Positions 141 to 21,839 of a stretch of DNA of 21,839 nucleotides are shown one piece after another. Origin of the DNA: Psammoneis japonica (taxonomy: Eukaryota); contig QPGO01000080.1 in NCBI GenBank assembly GCA_008632985.1, positions 372,001 to 393,839 of the forward strand, read 5' to 3'. How positions within the stretch are numbered: position 1 is the first letter of the stretch; each line of letters starts with the position of its first letter. The notes beneath the pieces were generated by a model. The model searched no databases. It worked only from the letters and a program-made list of their open reading frames with translations, and was not told the DNA's origin. Position numbers and translations under genes: made by a program.

Positions 141-1292
141 ATGGCCACTGCCACAGCCTTTGCCGCTTGTCTTGCACATTGTGGATGCAATGCGCAGACG
201 CGTGCCTGCACAGCCCATCAAGGCTTTGCTGCTGTTGAGGACTTGGAACAGGTCCCTTTGACAGAAATTGCTGACATGACCAAGGGCATCATGAAAAGCA
301 TGGATGCCACTGCCAACCCCCAAGTCCGCTTCCCACACCTGGTGAATCGCAAGCTCAAGGCACCAGGTGCATGGATTGACCACCGCAGGGCCCAAAACCA
401 AGAGCTGGCCACTGCTCTCTTCACTGGCGACGTTGTTGGAACATGGACGGCACGTCTCATGGAACTGGAACAATTCAAGTCAGCAGACTCAGATGACAAA
501 TCGGCTGCCAAGTCGGCCATGGAGCTCAAGAATCCATGTGGCTGGCCCACCTTCCAAGAGTCACTGGAGACCAAACTGTGCAATCATCGCAGTGCCGTCA
601 CAGGCGTGCCCCTCATCTGCCTGACAAGGGAGCATGAAGACGTCACCGCCGAAATGTTGGCTGCCACCTGCACCATCATTGACGAGGACCTCATTGCCAC
701 TGCTCGACTTGCAGGAGCTCAGCACATGCAGGACAGGCAACGCCTGTGTGATCTCTTGAAGAAGTCAGTGACAGGGGGGCCCGGATGGGCTTTTGTCAAA
801 CCTTCCAATCGCAATCGCAATGGTTGCACTGCTTTCTTTGCACTTGAGAGGCAGGCAGAAGGATCGGCTGCCGCCACCACCCGAAAAAAACGTGCTGCTC
901 ATGCACAGATTGCCACTGCGGAAGCACACTGGATGGGGTCGATTCACTTTCGACCAGTGCGTTCAACGCCATCAAAAGGCTCACAACAACTTGTCTGAGC
1001 TTGATGAACCAGCAGCCGAGACCAAGAAGGTCTCTGACTTTCCAAAGGGCATCTCCGACCCCAGGTTGGAAACTGGTGAGAGTGCAGTGGACGGTGACCC
1101 GATGAAGCTCACAGATTTCGAAGCATGCCAGCAGCACATGAAGACTCTGGCAGAAAATGCAAAGAACCACAATGCTGACACTTGTGGAATCGCGTCCATC
1201 AAACGCCACAACAACCGGTGCAGAAACCCTGGCGGAAAGCGCCAACCTAAAAAGGACAAGCCCAGGATCCGGGCAGGCCATTGTCCTGTTGA
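141..1292 (+). pseudogene. gag: Ty1/copia (diatom CoDi-like) gag relic, frameshifted near 920, 3'-truncated
   Basis: ORF 141-998 continues into ORF 793-1386 after a frameshift. Motifs GVPLICLTR, GPGWAFVK..RNG..AFFAL and GRFTFDQCVQRHQKAHNNL..LDEPAAETKKVSDFPKGISDPRL match recalled diatom copia gag once C/H are read as Y. Ends abruptly at the gypsy fragment. Confidence 0.72.
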
Positions 1293-2275
1293 TCAAACCA
1301 TCCGGTTGCTGGATCAATCATTGTCAAACATTTCAGGACTGGGGATTTCTTCTTTCCCTCATGACACATTTTGTATGGTCCAATGAGATCCACACACAGT
1401 CGTTCCCATGGCACTGATTCTGCACACCCAGGAGGCAAATGTCCGCATTTCTTGTGTTTCTTTTTGAGTTTTTGGCACGTCTCACATCTCGACACGTGTT
1501 TTCGCATGTCTTCACGCAAGGTGGACCACCACAAGTGTTGTGAGATTGTTTCTTCTGTTTGATTTGTGCCAGGGTGAAGAAGGTGTGCATGACACCAATC
1601 TGTCACTGCCTTGCAACGTCTTTGGAATGACGATTTTATCCTTGTGACATGTGAGCACCTAGTCTCGCTTGCCTCCATGAAAAGTCTTTGTGTGAAATGT
1701 CTTGTTGGACAATTTGGAGAGAATGTCTTTTTCCCGTTTTTGTTCTGTGTCAAGAACTTTGCAATTTAATGGAAAGACATTGTCGCAGGATTTTGGCAGG
1801 ACCTTCTCAGCCAACTCTTCTGTGCTGAGGTTTTCCATGGGTTCTGTTTTTTTCACAGCAAGTCAGCCAATCGCATCTGTGACAACATTTGCCTTGCCCT
1901 CGAGGTGTGTCATTTCGGGACTGCACTCTTTTGTCATCAGATGCCAATGCACGACTCTGTCCGTTGTGAAATTTTTGTGTGTGAGATTTTTGTGGTCCGT
2001 GTGCACATTCATCTGTTGGCCAAACAAAGTGTTTCGGAACTCTTTTGATGTCTCCACTGTGGACAACAGCTCTTTTTCCATCACAGCACAATGTGTCTGC
2101 GCTCCATTCAGCTTGTGGCTGTAGAAGGCAATTGGTTGGTTGTTCTGTGTGACAACCACCCCCAATTGAGAATTGCTTGCATCAGCGTGTGTCTCAAAGG
2201 GTGTGTTGAAATTCGGATGTGACAACAGTGTGTCTTTAGAGACAATGAGCTTCTCATTTTTGAAGGCTTTTGCTG
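1293..2275 (-). pseudogene. pol: Ty3/gypsy pol fragment (RNase H, integrase zinc finger, start of integrase core)
   Basis: RNase H motifs PFETHADAS..QLG..PIAFYSHKL..EKELLS..VHTDHKNL..NVVTDA (ORF 1863-2450). HHCC finger H..LHPG...CETCQK and PWERLCVDLIGPY..LTMIDPATGWF (ORF 1247-1753). RH-then-IN order is gypsy-type. Contains stops and frameshifts. Confidence 0.9.
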
Positions 2276-2468
2276 GATCGAAAGCAAAGAATGGCTGGAG
2301 GTGGACAGTGTGAGTTAGAGTTGGCAGTGATTTTGGGTGGTGGGCCGAACTCAGAAAATGCAGCACTTGTGACTCAATCCACTTCAAACTTGGCAAGTTG
2401 CTGTCAATCACAGTGACAAATTTTAACATTTTACTTCCCATTGTCCACACAAATTTCCTGCTTCACAA

Positions 2469-3009
2469 TCAGTCATCACGATGGAGCGCATCGTTGACAC
2501 TGTCTTGGGCATCCTGCTTCCACTTGTCACAGTTGCCCTGAATGCCCTCCTTCCAGTTGTCGGCACTGTCTTTCCAACCCTGCTTCTTGTCATTGAACTT
2601 CTCCTTGGCTCCCTCCACAGCCTCATTGGCATCGTCCTTCCAGCCCTGTGTGGTCTCAGTCACCTGATCTTTCCAGCCCTGAGTGGCATCTTTGATTGCG
2701 TCGTTCACACCTTGCTTGGCATCGTCCAATTTGCCTTCAATCGCCTCTGTAATTCAAAGATGTCATCAAGCAGGAAGGCACATGAATTGCAAAGCTGCCG
2801 AAAAGCCAAACCACCATGTGCTGCACATGCTGCGCACCTTTTCCACATTTGGCTGCAATTTCCTTTCCAGCATCATCGATCTCATCTTTGTGCCGGTCTC
2901 CCGCCTCTTGCAAATTTCCTTTAATCTCCTTGTTTGCGTCCTCTGCCTTGTTGTTCCACTCCTCCTTCTTGGTGGCGCAGTGCGATGCGAGATCATCTCC
3001 AAAGCCCAT
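2469..3009 (-). CDS. Two-exon LEA-like / amphipathic helical-repeat hydrophilic protein (149 aa; exons 3009-2838 and 2746-2469), possibly pseudogenised
   Basis: ATG at 3009 in an AAACAAACC-ATG context. Removing GT..AG 2837-2747 joins ORFs 2737-3024 and 2469-2729 in frame (..AAKCGK-E-AIEGKLDDAKQG..). K/D/E/A/G-rich with QGWKD repeats at roughly 11-aa multiples. Confidence 0.6.
2747..2837 (-). other. Predicted 91-nt spliceosomal intron (phase 1)
   Basis: AAG|GTGCGC donor and TTACAG| acceptor. Removal restores the reading frame and the amino-acid composition on both sides. Confidence 0.6.
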
Positions 3010-5839
3010 GGTTTGTTTGTTCACAATGCACTGTGCTGTTTGGATCTAGAGTGCGTGTTGCCATGAACGGTGACAGCTGCCGCAGATGATGTCAATTTTG
3101 TGGTTGGAAGCTTCTGTGAGAACAATGATGATGTGGTCGTAAAAGATCGCGTGTCACGTGAGACTGGCTTGGAGGTGCACAAATCGTCTGTTGTCACCCG
3201 ATGCGCGCAAACGCGCAGTCGACAAAACGATGAGGTGGGTCACACGCGTAGATCTTCAACGTAAGATCTGTCACGATGTGCTGCACCCGCAAGAAATTTC
3301 ATGGATCGAAATCCACGATTTCCCTCCAACGCAACGTTTCGGCACAACACACTCAGCATCCATGTTCTGTCACACCCAACAACATTGTCACTCGCATTGA
3401 CATCAGACTGTCTCCAAAACATGCCAAGGTCACAGTTGCTTGCATGTGATAAATGCCAGTGCAACTGGAGTGATTGCGAATTGTTTTGTAAAGAGATCAG
3501 TCAGCACTGCATTGCCACCAACACCGCGCATCTGTTGTTGGGTTATTGTCAAGTTCCAGAAGGGAAAAAGCTGGGCACTGTTGCTTTGAGAGCTTCATTC
3601 ATTCGGTTGCTTGGACAGGGATTCAAGGGAAAAGGTGAAATGGTCATTGCAAGACACCATTTTTACCTCAAGTTGATGGAGAGGAGTGGAACAAAAAAAT
3701 CCGCACGACTTGCTGCCAAGGATGGAGCGCAGATCGAGTTGGATCCATTGCCTGGTGCCGGGGGTGCATTTCGAAATGTCACTGCTCCCATGGATTTGGA
3801 TGCTGCCCGCAGCATGGGCATTGTGCATGAATCCAAGCGTGTGTTGCTGGAGGAAATGACGGATGGCACCAACAAGTGTGGATGTGTCCAAGCGCCGCTT
3901 GCCTCCAGAGGGGATGTGCAGGCCATCATAAACTCGTTTTCTTCAGATCGAGTGGCTTGTGCCGTCATCAGGAAATCTGTTGAAGGCAACAACATGGAAG
4001 AAGCAACCGAGGAGGAGGTTTCATCAGCAGCCGCCGGTTGGACTGGCCCATTGGTGCCTTCTGTTGTGCAGCTCACACACAAGCTGAGTGCCTTGCACAC
4101 AGAAATGATCAACAACAGCAGTGACTCCACGGACAACAACAGTGATGAGGAGTTCATGTGCCATCCAGATGTTGTGGCTGTTGTGAAACTGTGCTGCAAG
4201 TGCTGTGACAAGAATGATTTGGTGCCACTTGGAAAAAACAAAAAGAACATTCAAGCACACTTGTGCCCGTGTTCATCTCATTGTCTCAATGAGCACACAA
4301 CAAATTGCACAATGTTTTCCCTTGTCCAAAGGAGAAAAACAGACACCGGTGACTGTGGGTCCTGTGGTGCATGCAACAAATCCGCAAAGTGTCGCAAGAT
4401 GGATTCCAAGTGTGTGGGAGAGATTCACCCATCAACCCGACATGGCTGCTGTTCTCATGAGCAACTGGAGAACAAGATGTCAAGCTTGGCAACCAACTTG
4501 AGGAAAGTTAGAAGCAGATTAAAGTCTTTGCAAAAACTCATGCACTCTGACAAGAGCCGGCTCTGCATTGGCTCAAATGATGACCGTCTGCGTGATTTGC
4601 TGTTTGACTCTGCAAAATGCTGTGAAGACAACAAGAATGATGTCCACAAAAAGATCCCAGAGTGTGTGGTCAAGCACATTGCAGAAATGGAGGGTGCACT
4701 TTTGCCATCAAAGCAGGTGGAAGCCGAGGCATCACAGATGGTGGATGAGCTGCTGGGCGCCATTTGCAACTTTGCCAAGAGAGCCGCAGGAAAACCAAAA
4801 CAATGCAGCTTCTCTCCCCGACTCATGCGGATGGCCTTGGCTTTGTGTGCTGAATCTCCAAAAGGCTGCAAACACTGGAGTGAGTCTGGAATCACACAAT
4901 GCCTTCTGTGCCACATTTGAAGCGAGTCAAGAAAGCCATGGCACCCAAGGAGGGGATGTTCCCAAACATCTGCGGATGGGCTGCAGATGCATTCACAGGT
5001 GGCTGTCACAAGAAGGTGGTTGGCCAATTTTTTTTTGATCAACTCAAGCTGAGATCTGACTTCTGCTTCAACCCAATGACCTCTGTCTGCACTGGCATTG
5101 TTGTTGCTCATGACCAAGACAGGATCCAGCTGGCTGATGAGGTTCTGGCATTGGTGAAGAAAACTGACAAGGAAATTGCCAACGTTGAGCCAGAAGACAA
5201 CCTGGTTGAGCAAGAGAGTGCCAAGGACAGTGGCAAGGAGGAGAGCACAAAAGAGGCCAGCTTCAGCATCTCTCTCTACGTCAACCAGTTTTTTTTGCGA
5301 GTCAGAGCAGCCTGACAGGTGGAACAAAATGAATGTGAACTTGGTCAAGCAAGTCCTTCACTCTGACACAATCAATGAGCTCACAAACCACCTGTCTGAG
5401 GAGCTTCAAATTTTCCACCCAGAAGCTCAGTTTGCCAGCAGTGCAGACAAGACCATGGTGCAGACTGTGACCAATTTGAAGGACCAGTTTGTGAAGATTG
5501 ATGCATCCACTGTGGCCAGCTCTCAGCTGCCTCAATTTGAGACAGCAATGTCAGACCCGTCGCACTCGTGGCAGAGGGGTGTAATTCGGGGTGTAACTTT
5601 GGGGTGTAAAAACGCGCGTCCCCTCAAAAAAAATTACAGCCAACAAATGGGCCTCCAGACGCACGCATTTTTTTCCTGTAATTTTCGTGCGAGAGCAGAC
5701 CGCATTGGCGGCAGAAAACGCGCCGCGATCCGTTTCTCATTGTGTGTCCATCTAAAGACAAAAAGAAACGACTTGTGAGTCAACGACAGACTGCAGTGTC
5801 TGCAGATGCAAAGCTTGACTGCAACGTCTGTCAAGCATC

Positions 5840-6245
5840 ATGAGTGCTGCGGCCTCCATGGAAGATTTTGATCTCTGTGTGATCATTTTGCTTCTGCAGT
5901 TTCTTCTTCTTGAAATCAACACTTTGATGTTGAATGCAAAGCAAGCCCTTGATGAGTTGATTGAGGAAGAGCAACAAAGAAACCGAACCCCTGAACGAGA
6001 GAAAGATCGTCCATCATGGAAATCTCTTTTCAAATCAACGAGCAACAGGGTGTTCCGTCGGATGTTTCGCATGAAAAAGAAATCATTCATGAAACTGTGC
6101 AATGAAGTTTGTGACAAAGTGGGAAAAGACACGTTCTTGCCAGAAGATTGCATCAATGGCACGGAGCACAAGAAGAAGACAGATGCCGCGACAGCATTCA
6201 GGGGTGGTGCAATTCCTGGAGAGATGAAAATTGCCACGGTGCTTT
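5840..6245 (+). pseudogene. 5' fragment of Harbinger/PIF transposase
   Basis: FRRMFRMKKKSFMKLC and IPGEMKIAT.L resemble the N-terminal helical region of Harbinger transposases. Similarity stops before the DDE domain. Confidence 0.62.
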
Positions 6246-6700
6246 TGTTGAAGCATGGCGGCGGCCGCACGAATCGCATCTTTGGGAGTGCGATTTTCCT
6301 GGTGCTTGCTCGTGGTGGAGTGCCAACAATTCTCAAGGTTCAAAATGACCATTGGGATCCCACCGTGCTCGTTGTTGTTCTGGAGCATGAAGACCTTGTC
6401 ATTCTTTCCATGCTTCCAAAGGCTTGGGTGCACCTCAGTGCAGTCTGTGTGTTTCCCAGTGCGAACCAAAACCTTGGCAATGGCATCCTTGCTTCTTGTT
6501 TGGTTTGTTGGAAGGTTGGGAAACCTGTTGGCCTTCTGTTGCTTGCAAAGGGCAGTCAAAAACTTCCCCATTGCAATGTGCTTTAAGGTTTTTGCTTTGC
6601 TCTTTGCATCTTGAACGCCTTCATCTTGAAGACTTGTCATCAGTGAGTGCAAAGTGGGGCACAGCTTCTTGTCTTGAGCTGCCTGGTGTGGCTCGGCCAT
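6246..6700 (-). pseudogene. 5' fragment of a convergent second ORF of the Harbinger-like element
   Basis: ATG at 6700 just inside the right TIR (MAEPHQAAQDKK..). Basic, protein-like composition. Harbingers normally carry a second gene, but no domain was recognised. Confidence 0.4.
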
Positions 6701-9700
6701 GCACGTTTTTACACCCCCAAATTGCACCCCGAATTGCACCCCAATTTCCACGAGTGCGACGGGTCTCAGACGTGATGACTCTTGAGTTTGTCACACACTT
6801 GACAAACATCTACACAGAAATGTTCATGAACAGGTTTGCATGAATCACCCCCAAGAACATTCAGAAGTGGAAGGACAAGGTGGCAGCGACACTTGAGCAC
6901 CTTCATGATTGGCGCGCAGAGCAACTGAAGGGCAAAGAGGAGCTAAAGTTGAAAGACTCTGAGTCTAAAGAGTGGCAAAAGTGGTTTCCATCAAGTCAAA
7001 CTTGCCACGCACTGCATGTGAGTGTTTGCGGTTTCATGGTTTGTGTGGAAACTGTGTGGAAGGTGGCGGGAGACAAGGTTTTCATCCCATTCTTGCACTC
7101 CAACACCAGCATTCTGGAAGCACTGTTTCCCTTGTCCGGCAACACAAAGGTGACACGCTGCTGAGTTGCCTGAGCACAACAGGAATTGTGGACTCGCAAA
7201 AGGCATTTGCAGCCTTGGATGGAAATCCGATGTGCGACAGCGAAGATGTCACCAGAGCCAAGTCAACGGGCAACGACCTCACCAATCACACAGACAAACA
7301 AAGACACGCCATGGTGAACCAATGGCTGCAGGATCGGAGTGCCAGGAACTCAACTCACACCCTGGATTTGTCCACTGGACAACAAATCAAAACAAACAAA
7401 TCAAAAGGCAGTCAAGGCGCAAAGTTGGTGCTGGACAGAATGAACACGGAAAGCAGGACATGGCATGACAACATGATGTTGAGCGACGTTGACTTCATGG
7501 AGCATGCCAAGTTGGCAGTTGGCACTGAAGAAGAACATTGCTTTCAAGCACTGTGTCGACTGAACAAAGCTGAACAAAAAGCCTTCCATGAAGCCTGTCA
7601 GTGCCTTTGGGGAGAGATGGAAAAAGGATGTGAGAAGTTTGGAAGGCGCGGAGTTGAGCGGTCCTTCATGGTTCAAGTGTGCAAATTGCAAACAGACATG
7701 GAAAGGATGGGCACTCACCATTCCAGGCTCCCAAACACTCTGCAGGCAGAAACGGCAGAAGATGGCAAGCCCAAAAAGCTGTCGGCATTCCACGTCCTGA
7801 TTGTCAACTTCTTTGCCTCTTGGTTTGCAGAAGAATTCACACAAACTCTGGACAATGCCATGGAGGATGGAATCTTCCAAGAACCCAGAAGCGTTGATGA
7901 AGCAGTCGAGAAAGCCACAGCAAAAGACAACAAGAAATGGGAAGCAATTGCCTCATCTGCAAATGCCATTTCTCAGGAGGACACAAACAAGGAGGTGACG
8001 TGGTTCCCAGGCTGGGCAACAGCGAACGCACGCAATCATTTTGAAGCAGACTCTGAGAGTGGAAAGAAAGCAGCAGCAATGCTTGATGAGATGGTGACAG
8101 ACAAAATGGAGTTGAGAAATGCAGCGCCATCCATTCAAGAAATGGTGCATCCCAAGATGCTCAAGCTCAAAGACGAGTCTCGCGGCCGCGCCGGAAAAGA
8201 GGATTGCACGTTGGTGTCCCCCAAGTTTTTTGCATTCGGGTTGTGATTGCTTGCTGCAATTCGTGGTCACTTCAATGAAGCCACAACAAAGAAGCTGGGG
8301 GAGGACAGCGCAACTGCAGCATGCAACAAACTCACAGACGAGGCCGTGGAATTGCTGTGGAATGACTTCGCAGAGTCGATTCCTGATGCAGTGTATGATG
8401 CTGCAAGCAATGATGAAGCCGTGCAGCAACTGTTCGTTTGCATTGTCCAAAAAACATTTGCAGCTCGAGCATCACGAGTGGTTGACTCGTTTCGGGAGGA
8501 ACACACAAGCAGATGTGCATCAAAAGTGGTGGATGCTGCATTGCGGGAGGGACCAAAAGTCATGGCAAAAAGGGGAAACAAAAAAGACGATGTCAGCAAA
8601 GAAGAACAAACAATGACAACAATGCACAGTTCAATCTTACCTTGCCATTCATTGTCACACATTAAGAAGCAACAAACGGCTGTCCAAACCATGCCACAGC
8701 TCATCCGCAAGAACAGCACAATGCTGCGGACGCCTGCTCACGACCACAAATGCACGATTGACGTTGGTTTTTGTCTTGTTGTGCTGCAAGCATTGTCCAT
8801 GAGCATTGTCACGTCAAGCCTTGTTGACCACCCCCTTGTGTCGACATGGAGACAAGGCTGTGCAGCCACCAGCACCAGTCAAAACCACAATGCTCTTGCC
8901 TGCCCATCCCACTGCAGCTCCCGAAGCAACATCAGCTTGTGCCAAGGACAAAAGGCATTCTCAGTGCTGGCGGCATCTTGGCTGGAGCTCAAATTGTGCG
9001 TGTGACCATGGTGGCTGAGGAGACATCCCCCAGCTGTGTGCAAGCAACTGATTGTTTTAATGCACTCAGGTGGGTGTTGTTGTTGGTGCATTGAAACATT
9101 TGCAAATGAGTGGAGCATTGTTTTCCAATCAACAGTGGTTTGATCACAAGTTGGTGACACTGCACGAAATTTGTGAAAATGTTGCCATTTTTAATGCACG
9201 TGTTCGCCTGTGGCTGGAGCATGTCAGCCATTGGGAAAAACAATCTGCTTGGGTGCCAAGTCTGATGGAATTGAGAGAGATGATTCCAAGAGCTCCTGGG
9301 TGCAGTCTTCTTTGAATTGATGATCTTTTGCACTGGGACGGTTGTTGAATTGCCCAAGGACAGATGGTGCTCCTCCATCATCTCCATCATTTCCAGATTT
9401 CATTCACAGCATGTTGGCCCCTCCAAGTGTCAAGCCCCCTGTTGCTCCAGCTGCACTGGTTTTGGCTCCAGAGGGAAACCCAACTGCACCTGGATCACCT
9501 GAAGCAAAATTGGTTGTTGACAATGATGACCATTTTCCCAAACCTCCAGACTTGCTGGGTCCTGCTTGGATGTGCTCTTGTGGAGCTGTGCACATGCCAG
9601 ATCATCATGGCAATGAAGGCAACAACCATCACAACTGTGACAGACACACCTTCAAAGGTGCTGCTTCTTTTGTTTTGAGCTCATCATGTTGGTTCAATGA

Positions 9701-9975
9701 TTCATGCAATGTTTGCTGATCTCAACTTGCACATGCATCCTCCATTGGACATTTTTGTGAGCAACAAGAAGACTCATGATCCTGATGTTTTTTTGCATCA
9801 TAGAGCAATGGCAGGACTGCATGCCAAAGAGTTAAAAAAAGCTGTGAATTCAGAGAGATCAATGATTTAATGTGACACAGCTCATTTGCTCTGACACTGT
9901 GCATGTTGGTGCCTCCTCAGGGATCATGCCAATGTTTTGACCAGCACTTGGTGGGTGCCCAAGATCAAGAGATGC

Positions 9976-10372
9976 CTTGATGGATGTGTCTCAAGAAGGC
10001 AGTGCTGCAAGTTTGCAGTGCAGGTTTTGCTGCTGGATTGTAGAGCTGCAAAGATCAAAATGATCCAGCACATGTCAAGAGTCAGCCTGGCTCTGCATTT
10101 TGACCACTGGCAGAGCACAACCCAATGATTTGGGCTCCCAAGCTGCAAACTGAGATTTTGCACTGTCCATGCTCCAGGCAGAGCACATCCCCTTGTCCAA
10201 GGTGATGTGAGTTCCACCAAAAATGAAAAAGAGCTCATCAAGGAAGTGGCTTTTTTGATGAGCATTGACAGGCTTGATGGGTGTGTCTCAAGAAGGCAGT
10301 GCAAGGTTGCAGCGCAGGTTTGCTGCTGGATTGTGAAGCTGTGAAGATCAAAATGATCCAGCATGTGCCAAG
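9976..10372 (+). repeat. Imperfect ~100-bp direct repeat (9976-10079 and 10273-10372)
   Basis: Shared CTTGATGG.TGTGTCTCAAGAAGGCAGTGC...TTTGCTGCTGGATTGT..AGCTG..AAGATCAAAATGATCCAGCA. Confidence 0.9.
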
Positions 10373-10379
10373 CTTTTGG

Positions 10380-11090
10380 AATGGATTGAGGGCTTTGTGA
10401 ACAATGCACCAGAATTCAACAATGATCCTGGTGCTTCCACACCACCACCCAGTGTGATTGTTGCACCCACAAGTGCTGATCATGGCCAAAACCTGCTCCG
10501 AGAAGCTGTGCTCTTCTTCTTCCACTTCAAGGGGCATGGGTGTGTGGTCAAGTGTGAGAGGTTTGGCTTGGCAAAATTCATGACTCTAAGGACTCTTGTG
10601 ACATTGTGGGTGACACAATTGTTGGAGAGCTGCAGAAAGAGCCGTGCAAATTACAGCTGTGCCAGATGCCAATGACAGAGAAGCTCTTGTTTGCATGAGT
10701 GCCAATGAAGGAAAATGTTTCTGCAGGCGCATTGAGAGAAAGCAGAGAGAAGAATGGGAGCAGATGGATGAACTGGTGCTGGTGCATGTGTTCCTGAAGG
10801 AGGTCATGTGGACAAGGACCATGGCCCAACAAGGCTTGGGTTTGCAGTCATTGGGGACATTGCTTTCTGCAAAACTGTCCTGGGTCAGGAAGGCACTCAT
10901 GGGTTCTGTTGGAGATTGCTTTGGCAGCAAAACAAGCAAGTCAAAGATGGATGGAACAATGTTGCTTGTGACATGAAGATGATGGAACAGATCATCAACA
11001 TTGCATCCAACATTGTTGCAAATGGGGAAACAGCCAAAATGGAAGAGGAGCTTGGCTTGAAGGAGAGGATCCATCCACCCAAATGAGAGG
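10380..11090 (+). pseudogene. Possible relic of an RNase H-fold DDE transposase (DHG / KD.Y / GD.AF..LG..C motif order)
   Basis: Across frameshifts: SADHGQNLLR (about 10472), DSKDSCDIVGDT (about 10582), VIGDIAFCKTVLGQEG..GFCW (about 10847-10912). Motif recall only; heavily decayed. Confidence 0.35.
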
Positions 11091-11469
11091 GAACATGGGG
11101 TGGACCATGGGTGTGCCAGTGAAGTGGTCAGTGGAAACACAGCTGTCAATGTCAACGCCATTTCCAACGCCATTCAACAATGGGTCAAGATGATCATCAA
11201 TGCTGACAAAGGGAACCCTTGAATGTCTGCACCCCCTGCAAAGCTGGGAGTCATGGGATGAACCCCAGCAGCCCACTCTCCAGCTTGCAATCCCAAAAAG
11301 CAGGATCCAGTGGCTGTGCTCCCCAAATGAGGAAAGAGCACACAATGTGCACCCCCCAGCACAGTTGTCAAAGGGTGCATCCACTGACATTGCTGCACCA
11401 ACAGCACAAATGTGGGGCACAGGACAAACGCTGGCAATGACATCAGGAGAACTGTCAAAGAGTGTGGAA

Positions 11470-11720
11470 GGACTGACTGCACCCCTCACAAGCACAGGTG
11501 GCATGGCAGCATGATGGATGTCCCTCACACCACAACCATGAGGTGGTGCATTGCAGCTGCAGATGGACAATTCTGGATCTCCTGGCAGCAACTTCTTCAT
11601 GACCCCACTGTTGGCTGCATTCAGACACTGTTTCTTTGATGGACAACAGTGGTGGTGGCTCCTCCATGCCTTTGAGCCACTGGAAGGGGACAAACGGCAA
11701 TCCACGATGCACTGGAAAAC
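11470..11720 (+). pseudogene. Possible 2OG-Fe(II) dioxygenase C-terminal relic
   Basis: One frame with TGA stops reads GGALQL...P...CFFDG...LLHAFEPLEGDKRQSTMHW, resembling GG.L / F..H..P / R.S..W of the double-stranded beta-helix fold. No clean HxD motif. Confidence 0.25.
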
Positions 11721-12049
11721 AAAAAATGGGTGTGTGGAAATGTTGCTCTGTTGCCAAAATAAAAAAGATGTCACAAAACAGACAAATTGTGAGTGAAATT
11801 TGCTTCCCTTTTCCAACTGAATCAAACAAAATTTTTGGAGAGCATGGGAAAAACAGAGATTGCATTTGAGAAAAAAGATTGAGCATCACCAAAAGAGAGC
11901 TTGCAGCCAGCTGAGTGGCTGGATCATGTGCAGACACATGTGGCTGGGGTGTGACAACTTGAACAATTTTGGAAAATGTGTCCTTTTCTGTTGGAGAAAC
12001 ACAAGTTGTGTTCAGGAATGGTCAATTGAAATCACACAGGAAATGGGTT

Positions 12050-13830
12050 CTCACAGCCTTTCTTCAACTCAAGGGTTTTCTGCCTTTTTTTCTCCATGTC
12101 AAGGGTTTCCTTTTCCTTCCTTGTGTTGGGTTCCCATGTCAGGGGTGCTTGGCATCCCAAGTGAGTTGTCCCCAAAATTCCCTTGAGTTGGCATCCCTCC
12201 ATTTGGTTGCATCATGCCAGACATTTTTTGTTTGATGACAATTTCTTGATGTCACATGATGTCATCACTGCCACAGTGTGAAGCACTCTTCTCACTGCTC
12301 TCACCCCAGCTGCTGATGTGACCATCACACTGTCAGACCATGATCACCACACTGTGGTGCCATCACAATGTGTTGGATGACATCGCTGGCACACTGTCAA
12401 ATTCATTGCTGTTTTGTGGTCTGGCACTGCCAAAGACATCAGCACCATGTCATCAGACATTTTCTTGCTCATCCACCTGGATGCATTGTTTCACATCAGC
12501 ACCATCAATGTCGGCGCTGTCAAATTGCATTGCTCATTGCAGCAAGGCAATGGGAACCTCCCTTGCTGGCTCAGTTTTCCTTGTTGATGCAACTCCCCAG
12601 CCCCAGTGTCATTTTGGGACAGACATCTGAGAAGCACTGTCTTTCACAATGGCAGGTTGACATGACATTTTGTGGTGTTGATGCCAAGTTGTTGAAGAAG
12701 CTCTTGACTGTCCTCCTCCAACTCCAGAGGAAACAGTCACTCTGGATCAGTGTCATGTGTGGTTGAGAAATGAAATTTCATGCAGAGAAAAAGAAACTTG
12801 GACTCATTTGCTGCACAAAGCCAACAAAAATGTCAAATCCAAAAACACGCACTTGTGCCAAGGCACTGTTGCTGAGTGTGTGAAGAAAAGAAGGGCTCAC
12901 CATGCCAAATGTCACCATCATTGTTGACCAAGAATTGAGGAGGCAAAGATGAAGTCAAGCAAGTTTTTGGCCCCATTGGCAGCAACAGCCTCCAATGTGC
13001 AAAAACTTCTGCTGCACATGAGCCCCCAAAAGGGTGTTGCATGGCAGGGGAGAAGCACAGGCAGGTGACACCAATGCTGAAAACAATGTGTTGTTGGTGG
13101 GCTTGAAGAGCATCCTGAATTTTATGATCCAACATCTGTCAAGAAAGATGAGATGCGTTTGCAGGATTCTGGGGGCTGTTGACCTTGAGGGGTGCCTTGT
13201 TGAAGAGCAATGCTGCCATTGATTCTTTGGTGGGATCAAGGGTTTCCAGTGGGATGAGTTCTGTGAAGATGCACTTTCTCAACAGATCAACAACATTGTC
13301 CTTGGATTGCGCATGTTGTGCATTGTCCAAAATTGATCTAGATCAATGACGATGCTGCCGCAAAGGGCATTGAAGATCTGAGTGGTGTCATCATTGCATC
13401 CGTGTGGTGCAAACACTGTGGAGATCTTGATGATGCCATCACAAGCCTGTTTCTTTGGAGTGTCAGGTGCCATGGTTGATGAGGTGCACAAAATGTTTGG
13501 TCACACAGGATTTTGGGGGCTGTCAACCTTGAGGGGTGTCTTGTTAAAGAGCAATGCAACCATCAATTCTTTGGTGGGATCAAGGGTTTCCAGTGGGATG
13601 AGTTCTGTGAAGATGCACTCCCTCAACAGATCAACAACACTGTCCTTGGATTGTGCATGTTGTGCATTGTCCAAAAATTGATCCAGATCAATGATGACAC
13701 CACCACAAAGGGCATTGAAGATCTGAGTGGTGTCATCATTGGTGCAAACACCATGAAGATCTTGCTGATGCCATCTTGAGCCTGTTTCTTTGGAGTGTCA
13801 GGTGCCATGGTTGATGAAGTGCACAAAATG
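12050..13830 (-). pseudogene. Highly degenerate coding relic of unknown product
   Basis: Protein-like minus-strand stretches (FTELIPLETLDPTKE..ALLFNK.PLKV; QFDSADIDGADVKQ) broken by TGA stops (possibly CGA->TGA) and frameshifts. Boundaries approximate. Confidence 0.3.
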
Positions 13831-13838
13831 TTTGGTCA
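13162..13838 (+). repeat. Diverged tandem duplication, ~344-bp unit (13162-13505 and 13506-~13838)
   Basis: Copies align throughout; copy 2 lacks about 9 bp (CATCATTGCATCCGTGTGGTGC vs CATCATTGGTGC). Many differences are TG/CA/TA/CG interchanges. Confidence 0.95.
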
Positions 13839-14232
13839 TGCACACGCAGAAACCTGGCATTGTTCTGCAGAGCCTGTGTGCTGATGAAAAAGTTGGGCTC
13901 AGGATCAAAAATGGTGGCCTGCTTGTTCAGCTCACAAACTGAACAAATCAAAATTGGGTTTTTGTTGCAGAGAATGACAGGATTTGAACAGGATTTAGGT
14001 GCACGCGAAATGTCGTGCGCTGTTTGGTTTGCTGCGCACAGTTTTGTGTGCTTTGGTTCCGCGCGTTCGCACACAATGCAGTTTGCTTTCGAGCCACAAG
14101 GCTCACAAGAACAATGACAGTAGCCCGATTGTACCGACTTGCACGTCTTTCGGCTCCTGCAACGGTCTCTGAGCGGAGACTCATCTGCTGTTTAGACAGC
14201 AGCAAGGAGTTGTTGTTTGAACTCTTGCCATT

Positions 14233-14358
14233 TGCCTTCAATTTCTGTCAGAGAAACAAGTGACCTGACAATGCCTTCAATTTCTGTCAGATTGACAGTC
14301 TTGCTCATTGTCAACCCATTGAGCAACCGCCATCGTCGTCGTTGATTTACCGACGACG
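14233..14358. repeat. 20-bp direct repeat followed by two hairpins
   Basis: TGCCTTCAATTTCTGTCAGA at 14233-14252 and 14272-14291; TTGCTCA..TGAGCAA at 14301-14326; CGTCGTCG..CGACGACG at 14334-14358. Confidence 0.8.
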
Positions 14359-14448
14359 CCATTTCAATTCTGCGTGCACCTCCGTGTGTGTTCTACATGC
14401 ATCGGCAAGTCTGCGCGCATTCAATGCCAGGCATCAGCAGGATTTTAA

Positions 14449-16378
14449 CGGGGACCCCCCGCAAGTCTGTACAACCATCCGATGGAGCATTTTTTGCGAG
14501 TTGAACGCAACTCTTCTCGTGTTGTCACCGCGGTGACCTTCCTTTGAAGTCTGTTGCACACCAACCTTGTTGTGGCTGTCCTGCTGGCGATCCTTTTCGA
14601 TGAATTGTTTGTTCCACTCCTGTTGCTGACATTTGGTGAAAAGGATCGCCAGCAGAAAGTGTTTTGCAACAACAACAATTGCGTCTCAATGTCACCGTCA
14701 CCAATCAGCAGCGACACCCCAAACGCCTCCAAGCCAACTCAAATGGAAGAAAAAGCCGACAAGTGGAAGCATGCAATCCCGGCAGATGATGCATGGGGCC
14801 AGCATGGAAGAAAACCAGGGTTTCAGTGCCATGGGTGAGTCGCAAAATGTCAATGTTCCTTGTCAGTGTTGCATCAACGTCTCGCATCTCACAAACGTTT
14901 GTTTGGTCGTTGCAACTGTCCTGCTGTCAATGCTTTCACATAAGTCGTTTTTTCTGCTCCTGTTGGTGACATTTGATCGAAAGGATTGATGGCAGCAGGT
15001 GTTTTTATGACAACAATTGTTTGTCTCTATGTCGCCGTCGCCAAGCCAGCGACACAAAAAACGCCTCCACCAGGTCACCCAAATGGAAGGTAAAGCCGAT
15101 GGAAAGAAATGAAGGAAGAGGCGCAAGCAAGAGACACAGAATGCCCCAAGCTGTTCCTTTGTTGACAGAGAAGTTTTGAACATGAAAATCACCACAAGCT
15201 CTGTCTTTTGTGGATTGGTGGCAACAAACAAACATGCATTCAGTCAGAGGCGCCGGAAACAAAAAAGGAAAGTCAAGATGTCTCCTGTGGGATGTTCACA
15301 ATGCCTGCCCATCAGAGAATGACAGTTTGAGGGTTTGAAACATGGTCTGAGCTGGGACAACTGCAACTAGAAACACTGCTGTTTGTCAGCATGCACAGCA
15401 TTCGCCACAACTCTGCATTCCAGGTTTTGATTCTGTGGCTCTCATCCCAGGTTGTGTCCAACAGAAAGACTCCACAGAGTGTTACATTGGTGTCTTGTGA
15501 TGGCAATTGCTACAGTGCTTGAGCAACTCCTGCACAGAGAAACACCCAACACACCAGTCGTGTTGCGTTCTCGTGGATGGGCTGACTGTGGTCGTTGTCG
15601 AACAGAAACACTCTACAAAGCATTGCGTTGGTGTCTTGTGATCATGTGTGAACAGTTGTTGCTGTGCTCAAGCAACTCCCACACAGAGAAACCGCTCTCA
15701 AGCGTCATCCTGCCGTGTGCCGGCACGCAAGGGCATGCTGCTCCACCGCAGCTCATTTGCAGAAGCAATCGACTGATCAACCAATTTCTTGCCCGATTCT
15801 TTGGATCCGCCATCATCAACAGTCTCGGAATCTGACTCAATGTGACGTGTTTCCGAATTGCCAGAAGCATCGGGAGAAGCATGACCTTTGTTCTTCTTGC
15901 ATGTGCGAGTGGCCTGCTTCTGACAAAGTCTGAATTGCCTCCACCACTGCTGCACCGTCCTTTTCCCTCGCGTTGCTGAGGAGATGTTTGTTCCCAATCC
16001 TTTGAGGAAGACACCCTTCAAAATTCTGTGCATCACAGCAACTGTGTTGGAGTTCTTCACCCGCCAGAGCAACAGCATGGTGGCACTTGCCTCTGCAGTC
16101 GTTTGCTGGGAGGGCAACTGAATTTGATGCGCCTTAGAGGCAGATGAGACATTGGACTTGTGGAGTCCTGGAAAGCCACCAGATTGCAGTGACTTCAGCA
16201 TGAGGTCACTGTCCATCCATGCACATGGAACCGCAGCTGGAAAAGCGGCAATAAGAAGCCACACGGCCTCGACAATCTCCACAGTTGGTTTGCTGTTTTT
16301 GTGATTAAAAAAACATCACGCAGCAACCACGGAGCTGAAGGAGCTACGGACAACGTACAGACTTACGGGGGGTCCCCG
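14449..16378. mobile_element. Non-autonomous TIR DNA transposon (1930 bp) flanked by TTAA
   Basis: 24-bp TIR CGGGGACCCCCCG(C/T)AAGTCTGTAC at 14449-14472 and 16355-16378 with one mismatch. TTAA at 14445-14448 and 16379-16382. A TA target with a 1-bp longer TIR fits equally well. Confidence 0.85.
14576..15099 (+). repeat. Diverged ~184-bp direct repeats within the TIR element (14576-14759, 14916-15099)
   Basis: Colinear blocks CTGTCCTGCTG, CTCCTGTTG.TGACATTTG, AAAGGAT, CAGCGACAC, AACGCCTCCA, CAAATGGAAG, AAAGCCGA at a 340-bp offset. Confidence 0.85.
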
Positions 16379-16436
16379 TTAACGTCACCGTCAAGTCTCC
16401 TTGCCGCTGGACATCTGGATTGATTGTGCTGCCTTT

Positions 16437-17016: not shown

Positions 17017-17053
17017 CAGCCCGGCGACTTCTGATTTTAAGATAGTTCAAGAT

Positions 17054-17085
17054 TTCAAGTCAAGTCCATTTCAAGTCAAGTCCAT
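17054..17085 (+). repeat. Perfect 16-bp tandem duplication in the copia leader
   Basis: TTCAAGTCAAGTCCAT x2, among further TTCAAG units. Confidence 0.9.
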
Positions 17086-17157
17086 TCTCACCCAAGTTTC
17101 AAGTCCACCTTCGCGTCCCAACCAGAATCGCTTGTTCTGACACCGCTTTTGTCTGCC

Positions 17158-20100
17158 ATGGTTCTCACTTGTCAGCAACAAACTGATGGTTTCAAGCACC
17201 TTGTTGGAACCGTGCTTGCCCAAGGTGCTGGAAGCCCTCTTGGTTTGGCTTTGACCCACGACGGCACGGACTCGCATCAAGAACTCTTCACGTTCACACC
17301 GCCCCAAATCGACTCGCTTGAGTGCGACAACGGCGCTGATGTGATCCCTTTGCCCCGTGGTTGTAAGAACATGTTAGCAGCTCTAGTTAGTCTGTACATT
17401 GTCAAAGCACACAAAGGTCTTGATGTTGCCAATGACTCCTCGTTGTTCACGCATGAGGATTTCCTTGCCTGCTGCCTCAGCCCCGACTGCATGTCTTCTG
17501 TGTCCGTCGGCAGCTCGCCTCTTGCACCTCCGCACGTCACCAACCCGACCAAGGCACGTGACCTGGTGTGAGACTTCAAGCGAGGTGTCAAGCGTGACCC
17601 CACTGCTTTCACGGCTCTCAAATCCGACAAGCAGTGGCACACTTGGCACACCTCACTTGTGGCACAAGCCCGTGCCCAAGACGTTGAGTGCATTCTAGAC
17701 TCGTCGTACAAACCGACCAGCCCCAAAGACAAACTGCTCTTTGCTGAACAGCAAAAGCACATGTTCGCCGTCTTCGAACGCATCCTTCTCACTGACAAGG
17801 GCAAGGCTCTCATTCGCGAAAATGTGGGTCTTCTGACGCCCAGACCGTCTGCCGCGCCTTGTCCGAGCATGCGCTCGCCTCCACCCGCGCATCCATCGAG
17901 TCCTCCACCTTGCTCACGCACCTCACCACCGCACGTCTTGGTGATGGCACTTGGAAAGGTCTGACCCACGGGTTCATCCTTCATTGGCAGGATCAGTTGC
18001 GCAAGTGCGAGGCACTCATCCCGGCCAGTGACCACTTCTCTGAAGGACAGAAGCGTGTCATGCTCGAGAATGCCGCACATCCTGTCGAGGAACTCCGCGC
18101 CGTCAAGAACCAAGCTGATCAGCNGATCAGTTGCGCAAGTGCGAGGCACTCATCCCGGCCAGTGACCACTTCTCTGAAGACAGAAGCGTGTCATGCTCGA
18201 GAATGCCGCACATCCTGTCGAGGAACTCCGCGCCGTCAAGAACCAAGCTGATCAGCATTGCACGCAGGTGGCAAGAGCCTCACACATGATCAACATTGTG
18301 GCTTGCTCCTCTCCCGGCGGCCCAATGCAACAGCACGTTTCAACCCAAGACGACACCTCGAGCTCCCCAACGCGCCACATGCGCACACGACGTCTGCTCC
18401 GAGGAACCGTCCGACGATGTGTTCTACGACATTGACAGCGACGTTGACGTCCTTCAAGCCAATGCTGCCTGCACCCGCGGTCCCAGCCTCACCGGTGTCC
18501 AATGGAGACGTCTCCCTCCCGACCACCAACGGCTCTGGGATTCGTTGCCCGATTCCTCCAAGGCGATCATCCTTGAGCATTCTCGTCCGCCTCCCCGCAA
18601 CCCGCGAGCCAGCAACTGCCATGAGTCTGTTACGGCCAACCTTCACGACCAACGCCTTGGGAGTGACGGTGATGTCAACTTGTCCAACACGACTCCTGCT
18701 GACTCTGGTGACTCCGCTCCACATGTGGACGCCACTTCGGACAATCCCATCCTGGCGCACCTCACCAAGCGCAAGCCACTGCCACCCGGTGATCTGCAAC
18801 GTCTGTTGTCTCCTAACCAAGCCCCCAATGCCAGTCGACCGGGGCCATCCGCCGCTTCCTCTACCCCGCCAGCTTCTGCAGATGACATGGAACTTAACGG
18901 CCGCACTTGCCGCCGCGTTAACAACCACAATGTCATTTGCTCTGCCTCTGCTCATCGCTCCACACGCACTGGCGCTCTAGTCGATCGTGGGGCCAACGGC
19001 GGCATTGCTGGCGACGACGTTCGCGTCATTGCACGCACCTCTCGCCAAGTCGACGTTCAGGGCATTGACGATCATCAATTGGTGGACATCCCCATTGTCA
19101 CCGCTGGTGCCGTCATTGAGACCCAGCGTGGTCCCGTCATCGCCATCCTCCATCAGTGCGCATGCACGGGAAAGGGCAAGACCATCCATTCCTGCGGCCA
19201 GCTCGAATGGTGCAAACAGGATGTCAACGATCGCTCTGTCAAGGTGCCCAACGGCTTGCAACGCATTGCCACTCCTGATGGCTATGTCATCCCCATTGAC
19301 ATCAAGGCTGGCCTGCCTTGTGTTGCCATGCGACCTTACACTGACGCCGAATGGGACACCCTGCCCCATGTCATCCTCACCGGTGATGACACATGGGACC
19401 CTTCCGTCCTCGATCACTCTGTCACTGACGACGACCAGTGGTGCGACGCGATCTCTGACCTACAGGACGATCCCACTGCCAACCTGTTTGACGAATGCGG
19501 CAACTGCCGTCACCGTGTCGTTGTCAACGAGACCATCTTGTCCGCTTCCTTGTCTGCCGATCACGCGTCCGCCCTCGATGATCACCTCATTCCGAACGAC
19601 GACGTGTTCTACGAGTGTCATCTGCATGCGATTGACCCCAAGGGCGATGACGTTCCACCTCCGGAGCGCACTGTACAGCCCAAGGACCCCCCCTTCGAGT
19701 CTCTTCGGCCTTGCTTTGGCTTCCTACCTGCCGATGCGGTCCGTCGTACTTTTGACTGCACCACGCAGTGCGCCCGCATGCCCGCCGGTACACACCTTCG
19801 CAAGGCCTGCAAATCACCCAACCCCGCCCTTAATGTGCACCGCCGCAACGAGCCTGTCGCCACTGACACCGTTTGTGCCGACACCCCGGCCGTCGACTCT
19901 GGTTGCACCAGCGCCCAACTGTTTGTTGGCACCGAGTCTACCGTCACTGACGTCTACGGCACTAAGACGGACAAAGAGTTTGTCAACACACTCGAGGATC
20001 AGATCCGTGAACGTGGTGCCCCATCCAAACTCATTAGCGACCGTGCTCAAGTTGAGATCAGCAACAAAGTGCTCGGGATCCTACGCGCCCTCTTCATCTC

Positions 20101-21493
20101 CAGCTGGCAAAGTGAGCCTCACCAGCAACACCAAAACTTTGCCGAGCGTCGACACCAGACCGTGAAGCGCATGGCGAACACTGTCATGGATCGTTTTGGT
20201 TCGCCCGCCCACACATGGCTGCTGGCGCTCATGTGCGTGTGCTTCACACTCAACCACACAGCGTCCCCACGTCTCCACTGGCGCACGCCCCTCGAGACTC
20301 TCACTGGCTCCACCCCGGACATCAGCCCATTGCTTCGCTTTCACTGGTGGGAACCCGTGTGCTTCCACCTCGATGACTCCGATTGGCCGTCCGAATCCCG
20401 TGAGTTGCGTGGACGCTTCGTTGGCATTGCTGAGCACGTCGGCCACCAGATGACCTTCAAGATTCTCTCTGACGAGACTCAGAAGATCCTCTGCCGGTCC
20501 AACGTATGATCCGCTGCCACCGATCCTGCCGTTCGAAACCTGCGTCTTGATCCTCCTGATGGGGAGCCACCTGAACCCATCATCAAATCTCGCCATGACG
20601 ACAACCCCGTCGATTCACCTGATGGGGAGATCAGGACACCCAAGATGCCAGTTTTCGATCCGCAAGACATCATCGGACGCACCTTCCTCATGCAGCCACA
20701 AGAGGACGGACAACGCCACAGAGCTTGCATCGTCAAGGCCGTCGAAGACCACGAATGGAAAGTGAACGGCAACCCTGAGCTCACTGGGTTCATCTGCTCT
20801 GTCAACAACGACGAATGCGAGGAAGTCCTGGCCCACAACGACATCATGAATCACATTGAGCAAGAAGACGAAGACACCACTGTTTGGAAATTTCGATGCA
20901 TTGTGTCACACGAAGGACCTCTGAAGCCTCATGACCCAACCTGGAAAGGCTCAAGCTACAACATCATGCTTGAATGGGAAAGTGGGGAGATCACGTCCGA
21001 GCCTCTTGCCATCATCGCCAAGGACGACCCTGTCACCTGTGCCATCTGTGCACGAGAGAACGGACTTCTCGACACTGATGGCTGGAAGCGGTTCCGCACC
21101 ATCGCGAGGCGCCAGAAGAAGCCACTCCGCATGGCCAACCAAGCCAAGCTTCACTCCTTCCACACTGCACCTCGCTACAAGCACGGATGCGAAGTTCCCC
21201 GGAACTGCAAACACGCCATGTCACTAGACGAACACAACGGCAACCGCAAATGGGGAGACGCAACTAATCTCGAGATGGACCAACTCGATGAATATGAAGT
21301 CTTTCATGACTGCGGGCCCTCCGAGTCTTCCACTCCTCCTGCGGGACACAAGAAGATCCGAGTGCACCCAGTGTGCGACATGAAACACGACGGCCACCAC
21401 AAGGCACGACTCGCAGCCGATGGGCACCTCACGGACGCACCCATCGACAGTGTCTACTCCGGAGCAGTCTCCCTCCGTGGCCTTCGGCTGATG
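17158..21493 (+). pseudogene. gag-pol: Ty1/copia (CoDi-like) gag-pol: gag, protease, integrase, start of RT; truncated within RT
   Basis: gag FKRGVKRD..AQARAQDV..LTDKGK; protease LVDRGANGG (about 18977); integrase ATDT / ISDRA / AERR; RT KKIRVH...KHDG.HKARL.ADGHLT..VYSG.VSLR. PR-IN-RT order. In-frame TGA at 17569 and 20507; frameshifts near 17825 and 18260-18320. Confidence 0.93.
17991..18256 (+). other. 133-bp duplication around a single N (probable assembly join)
   Basis: 17991-18123 is repeated at 18125-18256 with a 1-bp deletion; N at 18124. Confidence 0.85.
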
Positions 21494-21839
21494 GACGCGT
21501 TCCAGGTCTAGGTGGGACCACGCACTGCTGAACTGTGACATCGATGGTTTTTTGAATCGCGTCGTATGTCGCGCACGTACATTTCTACGTGATTTTGGCG
21601 AAATTTTGCATCATTTTACAGTGCAATTGTCAGGCGATCCATTCAACAACTTTTAACATTTTTTTCTTCTACGCCATTCTCGAGTGTCTCAAGAATGGTG
21701 CAGGGCAGGCGCATTGTCCAAAACTTCGAGTACGAACAGAGATGTGTGCACTGCAAACTTGGCCGTTTGTTTTGTGTCAAAGACAAATGCATCCATTAAC
21801 CAGAGTGCGAACTACAGAGCTCGCACGCAGAATTCTACG

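Follow-up and report, generated by a model that had tools for sequence, protein, structure and literature searches.

The DNA analyzed here is a 21,839-bp stretch of Psammoneis japonica contig QPGO01000080.1 (assembly GCA_008632985.1, positions 372,001 to 393,839), referred to below as the window. It is a eukaryotic nest of dead mobile elements, made up of copia-like and gypsy-like retroelements, a P-element-like transposase gene interrupted by a Harbinger-type insertion, and an element with terminal inverted repeats (TIRs) flanked by TTAA (Table 1). The dinucleotide TA (TpA) is nearly absent from this nest while CA and TG are in excess, which is probably explained by TpA-directed A:T→G:C hypermutation of mobile DNA of the kind described in Bigelowiella natans (Mettrop et al., bioRxiv 10.64898/2026.01.13.699255). 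A first-pass annotation of the window had proposed that differences between paired repeats show TA→CA/TG change directly, and every string it quoted was found at the position it gave.

Table 1 Coordinates of mobile elements and repeats in the window (TIR, terminal inverted repeat; o/e, observed/expected ratio).
Feature	Position	Strand	Details
Ty3/gypsy RNase H and integrase fragment	1256..2369	-	PF17917 and PF17919 matches; 31 homologues
P-element/THAP9-like transposase gene remnant	3373..8600	+	Weak homologues; Harbinger-type element inserted mid-gene
Internally deleted PIF/Harbinger-type element	5554..6765	+	TIRs align 5554-5617 with 6701-6765, ~64 bp
Left TIR subrepeats	5576..5609	+	3 x GGGGTGTAA, starting at 5576, 5588 and 5601
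Harbinger-type transposase remnant, N-terminal part	5837..6478	+	43% identity to P0122 residues 18-223
Right TIR subrepeats	6709..6742	-	GGGGTGCAA x2 (6722-6730, 6734-6742), GGGGTGTAA x1 (6709-6717)
Unannotated stretch	9003..14000	.	TA o/e 0.04, CG o/e 0.08; CA and TG o/e near 1.9-2.0
Dispersed direct repeat	9976..10372	+	9976-10079 vs 10273-10372, 86.5% identity; 2 swaps, 1 TA/TG, 1 CG/TG difference
Tandem duplication, 342 + 333 bp	13162..13838	+	13162-13503 vs 13506-13838, spacing 344, 88.6% identity
TTAA-flanked element with 24-bp TIRs	14445..16382	.	TIRs 14449-14472 and 16355-16378
Internal direct repeat of TTAA-flanked element	14569..15099	+	14569-14759 vs 14909-15099, 74% identity; 4 swaps
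Internal direct repeat	15455..15692	+	15455-15543 vs 15596-15692, 74% identity; 3 swaps, 3 TA vs CA/TG differences
Degenerate Ty1/copia-like (diatom CoDi-type) retrotransposon	17041..21511	+	120 homologues; tblastn covers 17143-21493

A Pfam search of the long open reading frames (ORFs) in the window matched only the RNase H fragment, and the copia-like and P-element-like identities rest on homologues. Those of the copia-like element come from diatoms and metagenomes, and their alignments to its reverse transcriptase end at 21493 with ~80-230 residues remaining. For the P-element-like gene, tblastn matches were obtained on both sides of the Harbinger insertion; its reading frames are Cys/His-rich, and its weak homologues include proteins carrying PF21787 (P0124 and P0140) or PF12017 (P0141). 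The usual PIF/Harbinger target is TWA. The insert in this gene is bordered by TCA at 5551-5553 and 6766-6768, which gives a 3-bp target-site duplication outside the TIRs, as expected of such elements. Its transposase remnant resembles the 492-aa protein P0122, which carries PF13359 (DDE_Tnp_4) at residues 243-386; clear similarity is limited to the N-terminal ~140 residues of the remnant, and no DDE domain was found in the window's copy by Pfam search. The TTAA-flanked element ends in 28-nt arms (14445-14472 and 16355-16382, 96% complementary) that begin with TTAA at 14445-14448 and 16379-16382, the target duplication expected of piggyBac. Neither a Pfam match (including for the longest ORF, at E ≤ 10) nor a piggyBac-type transposase was found within it; as it may be a non-autonomous copy, it was not placed in a family. 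The region 9003-14000 gave no Pfam match and no recognisable element, and is possibly the oldest DNA of the window.

TA occurs only 126 times in the window, an observed/expected ratio (o/e) of 0.09, compared with 1.57 for CA, 1.69 for TG and 0.57 for CG. CA and TG together total 4442, making TA ~35 times rarer. The bias is pervasive, as all 21 one-kb windows combine TpA depletion (TA o/e ≤0.29) with enrichment of CpA (1.25-1.98) and TpG (1.43-2.12), and TA o/e lies between 0.03 and 0.19 in 11 of 12 segments. When triplets were counted on both strands, the stop triplets TAA (92) and TAG (67) were far outnumbered by TGA (1018), and the Tyr-type triplets TAT (21) and TAC (72) by TGT (1121), TGC (1272), CAT (1019) and CAC (1089). 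With two of the three stop codons almost eliminated, 37 stop-to-stop frames reach 150 codons or more, spread over both strands. The few TAs that remain seldom have an A on their 5′ side (9 of 126, with 22% expected; p = 8e-6) or a T on their 3′ side (12 of 126, with 21% expected; p = 7e-4), which suggests that ATA/TAT is the preferred target. Their commonest contexts are CTAC (22) and TTAA (21), and CTAC greatly exceeds its own reverse complement GTAG (4), mostly via retained Tyr codons on the plus strand.

This composition was compared with that left by RIP (repeat-induced point mutation) of fungi, whereby C:G to T:A transitions turn CpA into TpA (PMC2621366). Both are dinucleotide-specific transition scramblings of repeated or mobile DNA that leave a compositional scar, but they run in opposite directions. 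RIP creates stop codons, whereas in the window TAA and TAG are nearly absent, the frames are open and the damage is missense (Tyr→Cys/His). The window's TpA/ApT of 0.107 and (CpA+TpG)/(ApC+GpT) of 1.68 are the reverse of the RIP signature, which has a high TpA/ApT.

The direction of change was read from codons at columns conserved among homologues, defined for the copia-like element as ≥60% agreement among at least 30 aligned homologues. Over three elements combined, the 28 conserved-Tyr columns now hold TAY in 5, TGY (Cys) in 15, CAY (His) in 5 and TTC in 3; that is, 20/28 have become TGY or CAY. The copia-like element contributes 18 of these columns (TAY 4, TGY 9, CAC 2, TTC 3), whereas its other conserved residues are kept in 386/428 columns (Fisher p = 1e-10 against Tyr), and a MAFFT-based count agreed with this for its protease-integrase part (13 Tyr columns: Y 3, C 8, H 1, F 1). 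In the gypsy fragment, the eight Tyr columns read TAC once, TGY four times and CAY three times, and in the P-element-like remnant both consensus-Tyr columns are TGC. Conserved Ile codons of the gypsy fragment point the same way: of 14 columns, 5 retain Ile, 4 now encode Thr (ACA in 3) and 3 encode Met (ATG), which we read as ATA→ACA/ATG. Homologue consensus at Tyr and Ile codons in three elements therefore supports the TA→CA/TG direction proposed in the first-pass annotation, a support that the repeat pairs offered there do not provide. The same gypsy fragment has lost Arg from conserved columns (of eight, 2 kept, 4 His as CAY, 1 TGA and 1 CAA), corresponding to CpG→CpA/TpG. Judged from homologue codons, both TA→CA/TG and CG→CA/TG are thus polarised in this DNA.

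Copia-like homologues typically retain Tyr at these positions (median 85% of columns), and the loss of Tyr to Cys/His is common to only two of the 120, P0038 (17 columns: Y 1, C 9, H 4) and P0097 (8 columns: Y 0, C 3, H 2). As these two proteins show, the signature is present in other public assemblies. P0121 is a cluster mate of P0097 whose Tyr columns were left unscored. At three Tyr columns, one decayed copia-like protein has Cys where another has His, the protein-level trace of a TG/CA swap derived from TA.

The 28 columns hold 15 Tyr→Cys changes (sense TA→TG) and 5 Tyr→His changes, an excess that shrinks to 4 against 3 in the gypsy fragment. The sense-strand bias that these counts indicate is tentative, because the raw TG-versus-CA skew is inconsistent between elements (-0.13 to +0.15), and this skew was not used as evidence on a strand mechanism. 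Such a bias is also what ADAR-like editing of retroelement RNA (A to I after U), fixed by reverse transcription rather than arising as DNA mutation, would produce. ADAR or APOBEC editing of retroelements, fixed in genomes, acts through RNA or cDNA; like the changes seen here, it consists of clustered, deaminase-driven transitions in mobile elements. In the window, however, DNA transposons without an RNA copy step are equally depleted of TA (o/e 0.10 in the Harbinger-type element, 0.12 in the TTAA-flanked element and 0.04-0.05 in the P-element-like gene), and both retroelements contain CAY outcomes, which correspond to antisense hits. The Discussion of the B. natans preprint notes that ADAR prefers a U 5′ of the edited A, but the preprint also places the B. 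natans changes in integrated, transcriptionally silent DNA (bioRxiv 10.64898/2026.01.13.699255). Overall, RNA editing is an improbable source of the pattern.

Differences between repeat copies were examined in six pairs, four direct-repeat pairs and two TIR alignments, three of the direct pairs (9976-10372, 14569-15099 and 15455-15692) having been added by self-BLAST. Their 118 pooled mismatches comprise 16 TG↔CA doublet swaps (32 mismatches), 10 single TA↔CA/TG differences, 12 single CG↔CA/TG differences, 30 other transitions and 34 transversions, the last count being inflated by flanking bases taken into the two TIR alignments. As a null, the same numbers of transitions and transversions were placed at random in 5000 simulations. 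The first-pass annotation had suggested looking for an enrichment of TA-context transitions in such pairs; single TA differences were not enriched, with 10 observed against 16.1 ± 3.5 expected (P(sim ≥ obs) 0.98), and rescaling by 52/84, which subtracts the 32 transitions locked in swaps, brought the expectation to ~10, equal to the observed number. CA and TG far outnumber TA, and one copy gains a TA whenever a CA undergoes C→T or a TG undergoes G→A; for this reason single TA differences occur at chance level and carry no readable direction. TA was also conserved less between copies than any other dinucleotide (6 matches among 19 occurrences), which was rejected as evidence since the rarity of TA alone yields the same in the null.

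Comparison of two copies is thus unable to separate a lost TA from a gained one. The tandem duplication is a case in point: its 28 mismatches include 6 TG↔CA swaps, 2 TA↔CA/TG, 3 CG↔CA/TG, 8 other transitions and 3 transversions, and from the contrasts TTGTTGAAG (13196) versus TTGTTAAAG (13540) and GATCTAGATC (13335) versus GATCCAGATC (13680) it had been concluded that each copy lost a different TA, which does not follow. Nor does the paired evidence suffice without an external consensus, as had been claimed. Where sequence is strongly skewed, chance is expected to yield copy differences at the rare dinucleotide, and these are directionless; the informative readouts are doublet swaps and homologue-consensus codons.

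The five single differences cited in the first-pass annotation may instead be background transitions at the abundant CA and TG sites, some of them newly gained TAs, and we consider this quite possible, though at somewhat less than even odds. The null produces as many such differences or more; with 4442 CA and TG facing 126 TA, flux would be equal in both directions near equilibrium; and TA is present in both copies at only 3 aligned sites, as expected if most present TAs are young. The context bias of the residual TAs described above is, on the other side, not expected of context-blind regeneration from evenly flanked CA and TG. A further argument for ancestral TA comes from the Harbinger TIRs, where GGGGTGTAATTCGGGGTGTAA (5576-5596, plus strand) and GGGGTGCAATTCGGGGTGCAA (6722-6742, minus strand) do show the two TA/CA differences reported, both of which are accounted for by GGGGTGCAA copies in the right TIR set against GGGGTGTAA. 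The subrepeat GGGGTGYAA is triplicated in each arm, and TA stands in 4 of the 6 copies, including the innermost of both TIRs. This favours TA as the ancestral state at these two sites, more weakly than the homologue codons do. When metagenomes were scanned for the degenerate TIR subrepeat, the 39 loci recovered were all chance matches that shared nothing beyond the pattern with the window, and none was TA-poor (TA o/e 0.35-1.02).

In contrast to the single differences, TG↔CA doublet swaps were strongly enriched, with 16 observed against 1.8 ± 1.2 expected and a maximum of 8 in the 5000 runs; one of the 16 falls immediately beyond the 24-bp TIR, where homology is doubtful. The swaps, such as GTTGACC (13177) versus GTCAACC (13521) in the tandem duplication, are a genuine internal signal and need a hypermutable ancestral dinucleotide, either TA or CG. 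The first-pass annotation had traced such swaps to independent hits on opposite strands of an ancestral TA or CG; the swaps are real, and either origin is possible, CpG decay being active as well. Methylation and deamination of CpG (CG→TG/CA) could have made most of the swaps without any need for TA. CG o/e falls to 0.08 across 9003-14000, where the 344-bp duplication lies; copy 1 of this duplication retains three CGs opposite TG or CA in copy 2; and the Arg→His (4), Gln (1) and stop (1) changes in the gypsy fragment polarise CpG decay. A moment estimate under a CG-only model was solvable in one of the four direct-repeat pairs (14569-15099), however, and predicted 1.1 swaps where 4 are seen; for the two short TIR alignments the estimates were ≤0.5 swaps. 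Polarised changes derived from TA also outnumber those derived from CG, by 13 to 6 in the gypsy fragment and by 11 to 1 in the copia-like element (an Arg column read as TGC), the Cys/His alternation in independently decayed copia-like proteins is a swap derived from TA, and CpG decay is incapable of removing TA. We regard a mainly CpG origin of the swaps as possible but less likely than not.

The two losses were further compared along the window. The copia-like element has a TA o/e of 0.18 despite a CG o/e of 0.93 and retention of Arg in 27/29 columns, showing that TA loss is separate from CpG loss. Methylation-driven CpG decay shares the TG/CA sink and the TG↔CA swaps between old copies, and it is present in the window, but its strength varies 15-fold between segments whereas TA loss is near-uniform. 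Over the 12 segments, TA o/e and CG o/e co-vary (Spearman rho 0.81, p = 0.0014), which fits both decays growing with residence time, TA decay being much the faster. Consistent with such an age trend, decay has gone less far in the Harbinger insert (TA 0.10, CG 0.72) than in the gene that it interrupts (TA 0.04-0.05, CG 0.35-0.51). The least decayed DNA is the last 328 bp, after the truncation of the copia-like element at ~21,495 (GC content 0.45, TA o/e 0.41, CG o/e 1.26), and 21495-21839 either was inserted more recently or marks where the decayed block ends.

TpA is often mildly under-represented, and it is reported as the most depleted dinucleotide in bacteria (PMC11282364). Selection against TpA (through stop codons, UA-cleaving RNases or TATA-like signals) was considered together with an artefact of sequencing or assembly. 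A TA o/e of 0.09 that extends to both non-coding DNA and dead elements, Tyr→Cys/His in three broken elements and the gradient with CpG decay do not fit selection, and an artefact would not yield coherent TGY/CAY codons in one consistent assembly. Both are very improbable.

The observations to be explained, all of them shown here, are the depletion itself, its direction as read from Tyr and Ile codons, the surplus of swaps and the co-variation with CpG loss. TpA-directed A:T→G:C hypermutation of mobile DNA is the best explanation, to which we assign a probability of about 0.7. TpA-specific A:T→G:C transitions would have driven the DNA of these elements from TpA to CpA or TpG. As TpA reads the same on both strands, hits would appear as TG or as CA depending on the strand struck, and this would explain both the CA/TG excess and the TG↔CA doublet differences. 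Slower decay of CpG to TpG/CpA would feed the same sink. The reader of the first pass had paired repeats that fit this picture, although they are no proof alone. From the patterns described we infer an enzymatic agent, its targeting of mobile DNA rather than genome-wide action, and the timing of the changes; the most likely agent would be a localised, TpA-restricted hypermutation of foreign or repeated DNA, as in B. natans. Thymine modification, known from dinoflagellate biology, is a route from which the same double-strand pattern may be expected.

In B. natans mutation-accumulation lines, 231 of 302 nuclear mutations are reported to fall in two integrated viral regions, and 230 of these 231 were A→G or T→C, all on TpA (bioRxiv 10.64898/2026.01.13.699255). 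According to the same preprint, hypermutation events occurred in some lines only, the genome contains 124 clusters that are TpA-poor and CpA+TpG-rich, and low-TpA coding sequences are enriched for DDE-endonuclease and reverse-transcriptase domains; its authors propose deamination of DNA adenine 3′ of T by an ADAT2-like enzyme. The window shares the TpA→TpG/CpA outcome, the TpA-poor/CpA+TpG-rich signature and the link to DDE transposases and reverse transcriptases. It differs in that depletion is far deeper, with 0.6% of dinucleotides being TpA against 3.3% in the nucleocytoplasmic large DNA virus (NCLDV) region, and the window lies far beyond the preprint's cut-offs. Instead of a giant-virus or virophage insert, the targets here are four or five kinds of transposon nested in one another, and the evidence is historical, with no de novo events and with CpG decay running alongside. 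The window is accordingly a new instance of a recently described kind of hypermutation and not a new kind.

Several results weigh against this explanation. The first are the chance-level frequency of single TA differences and the abundance of other transitions, transversions (some from TIR-flanking bases) and CpG changes in the repeat pairs, which show that TpA changes are not the only process there and that several processes are overlaid in these old copies. The severe CpG loss around the 344-bp duplication and the Arg changes of the gypsy fragment likewise mean that swaps could stem from CpG. The TTAA-flanked element (CG o/e 0.59) poses a different difficulty. Its TIRs are near-perfect, the sole mismatch being the TA/CA difference CCGCAAG versus CCGTAAG that the first-pass annotation had correctly picked out, and TTAA and GTAC are intact on both sides, yet its TA o/e is 0.12. 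Its TA-poverty was therefore probably inherited in large part from the source copy, and not all depletion was acquired at this locus. Its flanks are, moreover, richer in TA (0.19) than the element itself, opposite to the age trend.

If transposons in this lineage routinely end in TpA-specific scrambling, the process would mirror RIP of fungi and be a second genome defence of eukaryotes working by point mutation. Elements would then be disabled by missense change, chiefly the loss of Tyr, and by erasure of TA-containing signals, rather than by stop codons. A practical consequence is that such scrambling leaves misleadingly long open reading frames in all six frames. A broader proposal is that TpA hypermutation forms a general anti-transposon system, possibly beyond B. 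natans, with the extended ATA/TAT preference and the sense-strand bias pointing to an adenine deaminase acting on the exposed non-template strand during transcription. Long terminal repeat retroelements and P-element-like, Harbinger-type and TTAA-type DNA transposons are all affected alike, as this proposal would have it, but we hold it to be doubtful.

Three further features were noted. The TTAA-flanked element contains, at 14581-14655, a perfect inverted repeat of 18 nt (CTGCTGGCGATCCTTTTC and its complement, separated by 39 nt), in whose diverged second copy (14909-15005) the central CG has become CA or TG. In the gag region of the copia-like element, two ~133-bp near-identical copies (17991-18256; 99%, one gap) flank the only N of the window, at 18124, and this doublet most likely reflects an artefact of gap closing or assembly and not a true duplication. 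Immediately upstream of the gypsy fragment, an apparent two-exon gene was seen at 2476-3010 on the minus strand, with a GT..AG intron whose bounds were set by eye; its product is repetitive, Lys/Asp/Trp-rich and tyrosine-free, and its DNA has a TA o/e of 0.07.

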